A stretch of 64,000 bases of DNA from an uncultured Gammaproteobacteria bacterium (GTDB lineage Bacteria > Cyanobacteriota > Vampirovibrionia > LMEP-6097): the NCBI GenBank assembly GCA_964438425.1, contig CAYTKM010000001.1:590603-654602 (forward strand), in the 5' to 3' direction. The number at the start of each line of letters is the position of its first letter. Within the stretch, counting starts at the first letter, position 1. The notes under the pieces were generated by a model. It searched no databases and was not told the DNA's origin. It saw only the letters and a list, made by a program, of their open reading frames with translations. Made by a program: the position numbers and the translations under genes. Below, piece by piece: positions 8,934 to 51,254 of this stretch.

Positions 8934-8984
8934 AAAACTGTTATAATGATTACAGTACAAATTATTTAAAAATAGGTATTAATT

Positions 8985-9825: not shown

Positions 9826-10548
9826 ATGAATTTTGTAGTGAAAACTATTTTGTCTTTTAAGATTAATTCGATAGATGACTACTTCGGTAGTATTTCTGAC
9901 TTTTATTTTAATATAAAAAATGGTCATATTGAATATATAGTTTTAAGTACAGCTTCACTACTACCTGGTAAAAAAGTGCTTTTAAAGCCAGCTAAAGTAG
10001 CAGGTTTAGACTTTGTAGATAGAGCCCTTAAAGTAGATTTAATTAAAAATCAAATCGAAGATTTACCTAATTTAGAAAAGCATCTAGATGTAAGCTCGCA
10101 AAGTAATGGAACTTTACCTTTAAGTCCTACAGGGGCTTTAGGTGAAGAGCAGCAAGCTAAGCTTAAGTCTGAAATTGCTACTGATAAAAATGCAATCTTG
10201 TTTTCGGTTAATTCTATTTTGAACTATAGTTTAGAGACTGTTGATAAAAATACCACTGGACATGTAGTAGATTTGATTTTAGATACAGAAAACTGGCGTA
10301 TTTCAGATCTGATAGTTACTACACATGACTGGCTTCCTGGTAAAAAAATAAAAATTTCATATGATCATGTACATCAGATTGATATAAATGCTAAGCATGT
10401 TGTATTTGATATTGATAGAAAAACCTTAGTGAAATTAGCTGAATTTGACGAATTTAGTCCAGTCAATAAGCAAGTTAAAGTTGAGTATATGGATTACCAC
10501 GGTCGCGTTCAATGTCATGATCACATGGTCGCTACTGAAACTAGCTAA
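9826..10548 (+). CDS. Tandem PRC-barrel domain protein
   Basis: Two units: FGSISDFYFN..NGHIEYIVLST.SLLPGKKVLL and TGHVVDLILDTENWRISDLIVTTHDWLPGKKI. Confidence 0.8.
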   Translation: MNFVVKTILSFKINSIDDYFGSISDFYFNIKNGHIEYIVLSTASLLPGKKVLLKPAKVAGLDFVDRALKVDLIKNQIEDLPNLEKHLDVSSQSNGTLPLSPTGALGEEQQAKLKSEIATDKNAILFSVNSILNYSLETVDKNTTGHVVDLILDTENWRISDLIVTTHDWLPGKKIKISYDHVHQIDINAKHVVFDIDRKTLVKLAEFDEFSPVNKQVKVEYMDYHGRVQCHDHMVATETS

Positions 10549-10657
10549 ATTTGACGAATTTAGTCCAGTCAATAAGCAAGTTAAAGTTGAGTATATGGAT
10601 GACCATGGTCGCGTTCAATGTCATGATCACATGGTCGCTACTTAAACTAGCTAAATT
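10431..10657. repeat. 106-bp tandem duplication (about 2.1 copies) of the PRC-barrel gene 3' end
   Basis: AATTTGACGAATTTAGTCCAG... starts at 10442 and 10548; junction word (G/T)AAA(T/C)TAGCT(G/A)AATT at 10431, 10537, 10643. Confidence 0.95.
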
Positions 10658-10690
10658 ACATTTATAGTAGCTAGTAGCTTCGATATGTGA

Positions 10691-10799
10691 TTTAAAATAT
10701 TTTTATAAATTTGGTAATAATTTATAAAAATCGTATAGATTCCACTATTATTTAGAAGAAAATTCTAAAAATTAACGTTTTTTATAAAAAAATTCTAAG
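10691..10799. repeat. 30-bp-period array of 19-bp palindromes (4 units)
   Basis: 10691 TTTAAAA-tattt-TTATAAA; 10721 TTTATAA-aaatc-GTATAGA; 10751 TTTAGAA-gaaaa-TTCTAAA; 10781 TTTATAA-aaaaa-TTCTAAG. Confidence 0.8.
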
Positions 10800-10904
10800 T
10801 TGTAATATTTTAGATTTTAGCAAACTAGCCGATGCTATCTGATAGGCTTTCAAAAATTTATATACTAGCTTTGATATAAATTTACATACCAATATTAGGT
10901 TGCT

Positions 10905-11447
10905 TTAGCCACCATACTGTGAGCTTGATTCATACTTTAGACTTGGAGGTAGGTTAAGCACTTTGTCACGGTAAGTGATCGAGATTTGATCTACGATATC
11001 TTTAATACTAAGCATAAAGCGCGGTGAACCGTTACGTGTGATCGGGATATGACGGTAAGAACCATCAGACATGCGATTTAAGGCAAAGGCGATCGGATCG
11101 TTTTCGTCAAGTGTCTTAGGATTTTTAGTCATAAAATCTTTAATTTTAGCTTGCTTGGTATCTAGTTCGGTTCTGAGCATGACTCTTCTTAAAATATCTC
11201 TTTCAGTGAAAATGCCACAGATTTTTTTGTTTTCATCCTGAATCGTGATACAGCCTTTGTTTTGTTCAGCCATAAACTGCATAGCTTCAAATAGACTAGC
11301 ATCAGCATCTATAAAATGAATATAATCAAGATTTAAAGTTTTAATCGGGTCATGGATGTTGATCGCAGCTGAAAGTGGCAATTCTTGCTCGCCGCTGTTA
11401 AGCTCTTCCATAATTTTTAATTCTTCATCAATGTAATCTGAAACCAT
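10905..11447 (-). CDS. Stand-alone CBS-pair (Bateman domain) protein
   Basis: GIFTERDILRRV, IKDFMTKNPKTL, ALNRMSDGSYRHIPI, LSIKDIV. Confidence 0.9.
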   Translation of the reverse strand: MVSDYIDEELKIMEELNSGEQELPLSAAINIHDPIKTLNLDYIHFIDADASLFEAMQFMAEQNKGCITIQDENKKICGIFTERDILRRVMLRTELDTKQAKIKDFMTKNPKTLDENDPIAFALNRMSDGSYRHIPITRNGSPRFMLSIKDIVDQISITYRDKVLNLPPSLKYESSSQYGG

Positions 11448-25370: not shown

Positions 25371-25479
25371 TTTAGAAAATCTTTATAAAACAGCGTAAAA
25401 TTTAGAAAAATATTATAAAAATCGGTGAAATTTAGAATTATTTTCTAAAAGTGAGCGAAATTTGGAAAATTTTTCTAAG
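25371..25479. repeat. 30-bp-period array of 19-bp palindromes (4 units)
   Basis: 25371 TTTAGAA-aatct-TTATAAA; 25401 TTTAGAA-aaata-TTATAAA; 25431 TTTAGAA-ttatt-TTCTAAA; 25461 TTTGGAA-aattt-TTCTAAG. Confidence 0.9.
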
Positions 25480-36716: not shown

Positions 36717-36750
36717 AAACGTCCATCTTTAAGGTGGACGTTTTGTTTTA
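36717..36750 (+). terminator. Intrinsic terminator
   Basis: AAACGTCCATCT-tta-AGGTGGACGTTT then TGTTTT. Confidence 0.75.
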
Positions 36751-50906: not shown

Positions 50907-51015
50907 CTTCTATGAAATTTTCTAAAAAAGCCTAAAATCTGTAATTTTATTCTAAATTAGGCGCTAAATTATAAAATAATTCTAACTTTGGCATGAATTT
51001 AGAATTATTTTATAA
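50907..51015. repeat. 30-bp-period array of 19-bp palindromes (4 units, left arms of the first two degenerate)
   Basis: Right arms TTCTAAA 50919, TTCTAAA 50949, TTCTAAC 50979, TTATAAT 51009; full units at 50967 ATTATAA-aataa-TTCTAAC and 50997 TTTAGAA-ttatt-TTATAAT. Confidence 0.8.
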
Positions 51016-51254
51016 TTTATGTTTTTTTGCAAAGCTATTAAATGTGTGAACTTATAAACACTTTAGGTAAGCAGCACAGCGAGTTAAATAAAATATTTGA
51101 CTCTTAGCGCATCCTTAATCTTTAATTCATAATAAATCTAAGGATAAAACTTACTTAGGTATATAAAGTGCACTTGATAGTTCAAGCTGAGCACTTATCA
51201 TTAAAGTATCAACTTTTATGAAAGCCACATAAAAAGTAGGTTAAAATTAAAACT

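Follow-up and report, generated by a model that had tools for sequence, protein, structure and literature searches.

The closest known system to the repeat array described here is that of the Lrp/AsnC site clusters, which include those of E. coli ilvIH and pap, the three-box operator of Sulfolobus Ss-LrpB and Pyrococcus FL11. Sites of this family are imperfect inverted repeats of 13-17 bp with an AT-rich centre, clustered on one face of the helix with their centres two or three turns apart, such that about 100 bp of DNA is wrapped round three dimers, or an octamer constrains a supercoil (PMC2995911). For E. coli Lrp, a SELEX consensus of yAGhAwATTwTdCTr has been determined (quoted in PMC5554404), and at many sites the protein is known to bind with no regulatory effect (‘NAP-type’ sites), mostly at promoters (10.1101/276808). 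The array that forms the subject of this analysis lies in a genome assigned to Candidatus Caenarcaniphilales (Melainabacteria). To our knowledge, no such Lrp-type array has been described in this group.

Within the window, that is, the whole 64-kb stretch of DNA that was analysed, the array at 10691-10799 consists of four dyad units (Table 1) that recur with a period of exactly 30 bp. Each unit is made up of a 19-bp imperfect dyad, for which the family consensus is TTTAGAAAA-N-TTTTCTAAA, together with an 11-bp linker, with three to four units per array. The core of the dyad can be written as TAGAAAA-W-TTTTCTA, and its centre (positions 9-10) is A or T in 100% of 15 units. Unit 3 has 2 mismatches to yAGhAwATTwTdCTr and 1 to AGAATwwwATTCT, and the degenerate unit 2 has an out-of-phase alternative at 10710 that scores 13.7 bits.

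Table 1 Features of the array locus and the other dyad sites of the window.
Feature	Position	Strand	Remarks
PRC-barrel gene	9826..10548	+	PF05239, E 1e-11; 3' end faces array
Tandem duplication, 106 bp, 2.2 copies	10430..10657	+	TRF score 421; spans PRC stop; 33 bp before array
Whole array with linkers, predicted curved tract	10688..10810	.	three wedge models; lag-30 self-identity 0.61
Unit 1	10691..10709	.	dyad TTTAAAATATTTTTATAAA; 16.3 bits (matrix without array 10691); 2 mismatches to Lrp consensus
Unit 2	10721..10739	.	degenerate dyad TTTATAAAAATCGTATAGA; in phase, weak: 6.6 bits; 4 mismatches to Lrp consensus
Unit 3, best unit	10751..10769	.	dyad TTTAGAAGAAAATTCTAAA; 16.2 bits
Unit 4	10781..10799	.	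dyad TTTATAAAAAAATTCTAAG; 15.2 bits; 2 mismatches to Lrp consensus
CBS-pair gene	10905..11447	-	PF00571, E 2e-18; 3' end faces array
Sister array, 4 units, cleanest copy	25371..25479	.	between smpB stop and SDR (fabG-like) start
Solitary dyad site	42751..42769	.	20.7 bits; 37 bp upstream of 1007-aa gene start; 1 mismatch to Lrp consensus
Sister array, 3 units	43097..43175	.	flush with mfd stop codon
Sister array, 4 units	50908..51016	.	unit 4 overlaps promoter-like TTGGCA-17-TATAAT

When the window was scored with a weight matrix trained on the other arrays only, from which array 10691 (arrays are named by their start coordinates) had been excluded, the phased sum for this array was 54.3 bits, versus 5.4 at the best non-array position. 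Likewise, the best phased sum in 200 Markov-1 randomisations was 3.2, compared with 66.2 for array 10691 under a matrix to which three of its units had contributed. The loose dyad pattern was matched 26 times in the window, versus 3.4 ± 2.0 times in shuffles. By a motif-free measure, lag-30 self-identity over 90 bp, the four arrays take the top four places in the window, with array 10691 second at 0.61 over a background of at most 0.49; the same scan gave no periodic signal at lags 27-29 and 31-33. Tandem Repeats Finder (score 30) did not call array 10691, because conservation is confined to the dyad positions. Matrix score, randomisations and self-identity thus confirm the four-unit, 30-bp array that the initial annotation had picked out from the letters and open reading frames. 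That annotation had also placed the array downstream of both a PRC-barrel gene and a CBS gene, and here too it was right: Pfam matches, together with JGI gene calls that agree on independent contigs for both genes, show a true convergent gap, in which the array begins 142 bp past the PRC stop and ends 105 bp before the CBS stop. Of the nearest start codons, that of CBS lies at a distance of 648 bp and that of PRC at 865 bp.

Four DNA runs of the same microbial-mat sample yielded Logan contigs with one and the same array sequence, and it is unchanged in two JGI contigs under two other JGI metagenome ids, possibly from the same study. Beside it lies a 106-bp tandem duplication (Table 1). As 106 bp do not make up whole codons, the PRC protein gains a three-residue tail (…VATETS), giving a product of 240 aa, compared with 237 aa without the duplication (JGI contigs). 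The duplication junction is found in Logan unitigs of 4/4 DNA runs, as a separate unitig (10507-10577) in runs X1 and X2 and within longer, spanning unitigs in X3 and X4, and is missing from the otherwise 100% identical JGI contig L114. Either the duplication is polymorphic in the population, or it has been collapsed in one assembly.

The three sister arrays and the solitary sites of the dyad provide the wider setting. Between the end of array 25371 and a start codon there are 52 bp. At array 50908, the promoter-like element at 50988-51016 (an 11/12 sigma-70-like match) draws on the G/C patch of the linker and on the right-hand half of unit 4, which supplies the -10; downstream lies a well-expressed gene whose product is a His-rich protein of 88 aa that has a signal peptide, and the RNA contigs of this gene begin at 51154-51170, about 140 bp 3' of the array. 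In addition to the solitary site in Table 1, a near-perfect solitary dyad of 22 bits, TTTAGAAAAAAATTCTAAA, was found about 3.4 kb to the left of the window start (L119:4158-4176), between the stop of an S-adenosylhomocysteinase gene and the start of a sigma-70 gene, some 120 bp before the latter. Arrays recur about every 15-20 kb in the window; no further array was seen in the ~17 kb walked beyond its ends. Of the 25 intergenic gaps in the window that measure 110 bp or more, 17 are tandem, 5 convergent and 3 divergent, and the observed placement of the arrays among them, three tandem, one convergent and none divergent, equals the random expectation.

When the four arrays were aligned together with their flanks, conservation was seen at the phased cores only, the flanks and linkers being unalignable. 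The lack of conserved flanks argues against a mobile element, and the divergence of flanks and linkers alike implies that the core positions have been kept by selection, not by recent copying. Neither conserved flanks nor a target-site duplication was detected at array 10691; a 13/15 direct repeat that flanks it is about what chance would give (by our own estimate, ~0.4 expected).

The 15-bp cores of the four units differ from the E. coli Lrp consensus, which derives from another phylum than the host and is independent of this genome, at 2, 4, 2 and 2 positions, in order. Across the family, mismatches range from 0 to 4, unit 43097 being a perfect match. Two mismatches or fewer are found in 12/16 units. 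Elsewhere in the window, 0.07% of 15-mers fit this well, and among random 15-mers that match the arrays in composition, 0.2% do so. The array therefore combines features known from Lrp sites: an AT-rich inverted repeat, a match to the consensus, and clustering on one face of the helix three turns apart. Compared by eye, the sites of Fur/PerR/Zur, CodY, CtrA, LysR (T-N11-A), Fis, ArgR and CRP/FNR all gave a much worse fit to the dyad than Lrp did.

No gene for a putative binder was identified nearby. A tblastn search with E. coli Lrp found no homologue in the 64-kb window, no DNA-binding Pfam domain was present in the 29 window ORFs scanned, and nothing DNA-binding was seen in three candidate proteins of the window (the His-rich 88-aa protein, a 308-aa membrane protein and a 124-aa protein). 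In the ~17 kb beyond the window ends, the regulators encoded are LysR, TetR and sigma-70 only, with no Lrp/AsnC gene among them. A literature search on the dyad string returned nothing relevant.

We also looked at the predicted shape of the DNA. In the 30-bp register (15 units), G+C frequency reaches 0.53-0.60 at positions 5, 15 and 23-25, and is 0-0.2 almost throughout the rest, apart from a shoulder of 0.27-0.33 at positions 26-27, so that the strongest Fourier term of the profile has a period of 10. Even in the non-conserved linkers, a patch of G/C stands at a distance of one and a half turns from the centre of the dyad. Such a 10-bp G/C rule is as expected for DNA that is bent continuously towards one face. 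Consistent with this, dinucleotide wedge models, in which curvature is modelled only, gave array 10691, a sequence of ~84% A+T, an end-to-end ratio of 0.75-0.78 versus a window median of 0.96-0.97 (0.17-0.48 percentile, three models). When 120-bp stretches of the window are ranked by predicted curvature, all four arrays come within the top 3-6 in the three models. The handedness of the predicted path agrees in all models with that of a 10-bp-phased A-tract control, not with that of an 11-bp one, and in one of them the path is near-planar.

Taken together, we lean, on balance, towards an account in which an oligomeric, Lrp-like wrapping protein is seated on a pre-bent, four-site platform and acts architecturally at 10691. 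Under this account, the family would consist of dispersed modules of ~110 bp, in which three to four imperfect dyads stand exactly 30 bp apart on pre-bent DNA. Each module would seat one oligomer of a dimeric helix-turn-helix protein, with one dimer per unit, and the three to four dimers would wrap the module DNA, as Lrp/AsnC (feast/famine) proteins do. Array 10691 itself would then be an architectural site of the nucleoid type, a piece of DNA that is bound and wrapped where two transcription units converge; with no promoter within reach, this copy would act architecturally and not as an operator. The presence of promoter-sited members in the family, the match to Lrp and the occupancy of sites by Lrp without regulation (10.1101/276808) mean that the family is best read as the site set of a dual regulator/nucleoid protein, of which array 10691 is a non-regulatory member.

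An alternative, which we regard as unlikely, is that array 10691 is a stranded relic: an array that once lay upstream of a gene, came by rearrangement to lie between two 3' ends and, though perhaps still bound, is now functionless. Comparison with relatives gives this idea some footing. CBS orthologues with 58-65% identity are found in MAGs of the same order, and Caenarcaniphilales contigs preserve the divergent pair of thiolase and CBS genes. On the other side of CBS, the downstream neighbour differs in each of three relatives (a 149-aa gene, a 167-aa gene and ATP synthase beta), the PRC neighbour is absent, and the gap is 0-54 bp, which leaves no room for an array. Conservation of the array at the syntenic position, for which the initial annotation had proposed to look, was accordingly not found in these three relatives (58-65% protein identity); nor were there arrays in ~53 kb of relatives’ DNA of similar G+C, by matrix or by motif-free lag scan. 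Because the relatives have no array and changed neighbours, array 10691 appears to be lineage-restricted and to lie at a synteny break; its only other copies are in 100% identical strains. Furthermore, this array keeps the fewest half-site G/C contacts (3/8, followed by 4/8 in array 50908), which suggests that it could be decaying, and it has one weak unit; the adjoining 106-bp duplication, taken as polymorphic, would likewise mark the locus as unstable. Against a relic, however, 3/4 units reach 15-20 bits even now, the lag-30 identity is exceeded at just one other place in the window, and the tract retains its predicted curvature, whereas an unselected pattern of 110 bp would blur fast in a genome of 35% G+C. 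Since the placement of the arrays fits indifference to gene polarity, a special history for this copy is also unneeded.

A further possibility is a hidden promoter, with the array serving as the operator of an unannotated small RNA, or of an antisense transcript of CBS, that starts in or beside it. Sigma-70-like matches are indeed present around the array, including two weak ones on the + strand (10692-10721 and 10839-10866, each 9/12), and a TTTATA-17-AATATT preceded by TG can be made out by eye at 10781-10809, pointing into the 3' end of CBS. The number of matches is nevertheless at the level of chance (4 versus 3.7 ± 2.2 expected). An Rfam search with E values up to 1 gave no match in the gap (one spurious snoRNA match was obtained elsewhere), and no credible small ORF was found in it, the longest frames being the duplicated PRC tail and a 36-codon TTG frame. 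Folding of the array is weak on the two strands (z -2.5 and -1.2) and is accounted for by the palindromes themselves.

RNA data were available as shallow, unstranded assembled contigs from three metatranscriptomes of the same sample. These cover dps, a 109-aa gene, the PRC gene up to 10259, CBS from 10951 to 11387 and the thiolase gene. In these shallow contigs no RNA was found over 10260-10950, though both flanking genes are covered, nor over arrays 25371, 43097 and 50908. As the data are sparse and unstranded, those over CBS included, rare antisense RNA at the array may still occur. Separately, RNA contigs from two independent runs both start at 8978, 7 nt 5' of the dps ATG, and end at 10258/10259 within the PRC gene; these positions may be real RNA ends or low-coverage breaks.

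Dyad sites of at least 9 bits were absent near the promoters of neighbouring operons, and this lack of a partner site makes local looping unlikely. Lrp clusters lie in the control region of a target promoter, and array 10691 does not. Given the convergent gap, the distant start codons and the lack of any promoter excess, RNA or partner site, it is very unlikely that array 10691 is a promoter operator, and we consider the hidden promoter distinctly improbable. The initial annotation had argued that there is no promoter here for the array to control, and had named an sRNA or antisense promoter over the array as the observation that would restore an operator role. The first point is borne out by promoter matches at chance level and by the want of a terminator, Rfam family, ORF or RNA contig in the gap; as to the second, the search turned up chance-level matches and no RNA contig. 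Its broader inference, that the arrays are not ordinary operators, holds for copy 10691 and goes too far for the family, which has promoter-sited members and whose placement among gap types equals the random expectation.

If an architectural Lrp-like complex is the preferred reading, a bolder version of it can also be set out, in which the arrays are sequence-encoded seats of nucleosome-like particles: ~110 bp of pre-bent DNA, wrapped by one oligomer, following a left-handed or near-planar path, indifferent to promoters and set down roughly every 15-20 kb as a chromosomal punctuation that would serve both as topological-domain barriers and as transcription roadblocks, in a genome with no excess of intrinsic terminators. 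We hold this to be a long shot, on a par with the hidden promoter. If true, the convergent copy would be its plainest example, separating colliding units and absorbing supercoiling.

Slightly less probable again, in our judgement, is a dedicated boundary element, in which the bound array, as a roadblock or topological barrier, would prevent read-through and buffer the supercoiling between the two converging genes. The gap does lack an intrinsic terminator (no G+C-rich stem-loop followed by a T-run in 10350-11050, which also rejects the array itself as such a terminator), no RNA contig crosses it, and 4/4 arrays follow the 3' end of a gene, one of them flush with the stop codon. Nor is there an excess of terminators more widely: in 60 kb, terminator-like sites number 10 versus 10.7 in shuffles, 14 versus 12.7 and 10 versus 12.9. 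This absence may leave room for a roadblock role of the arrays, and does not demonstrate it. (Only one convincing terminator with hairpin and T-run was seen in window positions 1-60000, at 36717-36743.) On the other hand, the distances from array to preceding stop (0, 142, 168 and 202 bp) and to next start (52, 239 and 380 bp) are heterogeneous and reveal no fixed relation, placement across gap types is that expected at random, four of the five convergent gaps that measure 110 bp or more are without an array, and the RNA coverage is too thin for 3' ends to be mapped.

The least probable of the alternatives, and a decidedly doubtful one, is an element that works without a specific binder, whether curved A-tract-phased DNA or a decayed 30-bp minisatellite, since, for all the strong predicted curvature, the high A+T content and the common occurrence of unrelated 30-bp minisatellites in a metagenome scan, the four arrays share the same dyad positions, including the core’s only G and C, across unalignable linkers and flanks, solitary copies of the dyad stand at promoters, the dyad equals an experimental consensus for a protein of another phylum, and curvature alone does not need a palindrome.

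The scan just mentioned, in which metagenome contigs were searched for a strict three-unit pattern, yielded nothing but unrelated 30-bp minisatellites, a weak result in that the collection evidently does not include this organism’s JGI sample: array 25371 fits the strict pattern and would be expected, by coordinates, on Ga0450789_081345, yet was not returned. In genome contigs, a loose two-unit pattern (60-bp spacing) gave, among the matches listed, chance matches in AT-rich taxa. Two observations made along the way concern other repeats of this period. A different 30-bp-phased array occurs in Lachnospiraceae and Clostridia genomes (L062:3729-3820; also L021, L071, L072 and L113), where each of three units holds two direct GTTATAAAA repeats 11 bp apart and where, in the two copies that were read (L062 and L113), a strong hairpin adjoins the array. 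A 3.9-kb JGI contig with no ORF longer than 64 aa (Ga0209629_10055792) carries at least 11 tandem 30-bp units of AAAATTACAATAATATTGTAAAACGCCTAT, each with a dyad core (L112:2055-2384), and appears satellite-like.

Several established classes of repeat element were also considered and rejected. A minisatellite or VNTR is contradicted by the absence of a call from Tandem Repeats Finder at score 30, the lag-30 identity of 0.61 and the restriction of conservation to shared dyad positions. CRISPR arrays have repeats of at least 23 bp and unique spacers of at least 26 bp, compared with the 19-bp core, 11-bp linker and 3-4 units seen here. Iterons or centromeres of the parC/parS type do not agree with four unlinked chromosomal copies beside the housekeeping genes smpB, mfd and an SDR/fabG-like gene, and no rep or par domains were detected in the window ORFs scanned. 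Finally, REP/BIME elements were set aside because the dyads are AT-rich, their folds are weak, no RNA contig covers them, and flanks and linkers are not conserved.

If the account of an architectural, Lrp-like complex is true, the almost unstudied Caenarcaniphilales, non-photosynthetic sisters of the Cyanobacteria, would dock proteins throughout the genome on a stereotyped module of four sites in pre-curved DNA, and at some copies there would be no promoter to regulate. This would provide a sequence-defined system for proteins of the feast/famine type that double as chromatin proteins, and would allow one to ask whether bacteria put wrapped particles at the ends of transcription units. The sharp motif and the short modules make the proposal directly testable, and the convergent copy offers a natural promoter-free case.

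Among described systems, REP/BIME elements are dispersed extragenic palindromes of E. coli that are found at gene 3' ends and contain IHF and gyrase sites. REPs are GC-rich, are transcribed as mRNA-stabilising hairpins and are conserved over their whole sequence. The array family resembles REP/BIME elements, which often lie between convergent genes, in being dispersed, extragenic and a putative recruiter of an architectural protein; unlike REPs, its units are AT-rich, fold weakly, have no RNA contig over them and are conserved at dyad positions only. In Caulobacter, GapR binds AT-rich, overtwisted DNA at the 3' ends of highly transcribed and convergent genes. Here the similarity lies in a proposed protein-DNA complex at a place where converging transcription builds positive supercoils, and the difference in the mode of recognition, since GapR reads DNA shape and torsion, whereas the array consists of phased dyads.

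The NAP-type (‘poised’) sites of E. coli Lrp (10.1101/276808) share with array 10691 the status, here a predicted one, of a sequence-specific site without a transcriptional effect; the E. coli sites are enriched at promoters, whereas array 10691 lies in a promoter-less convergent gap. The likeness is closest with the Lrp/AsnC clusters. As in these, the array dyads are 15-19 bp with an AT-rich centre, the core fits both yAGhAwATTwTdCTr and AGAA-N5-TTCT, and three to four sites lie on one helical face over ~100-110 bp of DNA that is predicted to be bent, a length described as sufficient to wrap round three or four dimers (PMC2995911). Unlike in these clusters, the spacing is always exactly 30 bp, the linkers obey a 10-bp G/C rule, and a stereotyped module recurs every ~15-20 kb, with two of its copies, 10691 and 43097 (at the mfd stop), situated at gene 3' ends instead of in control regions. 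On present evidence, the array therefore represents a familiar kind of site put to unusual use, and not a new kind of system.
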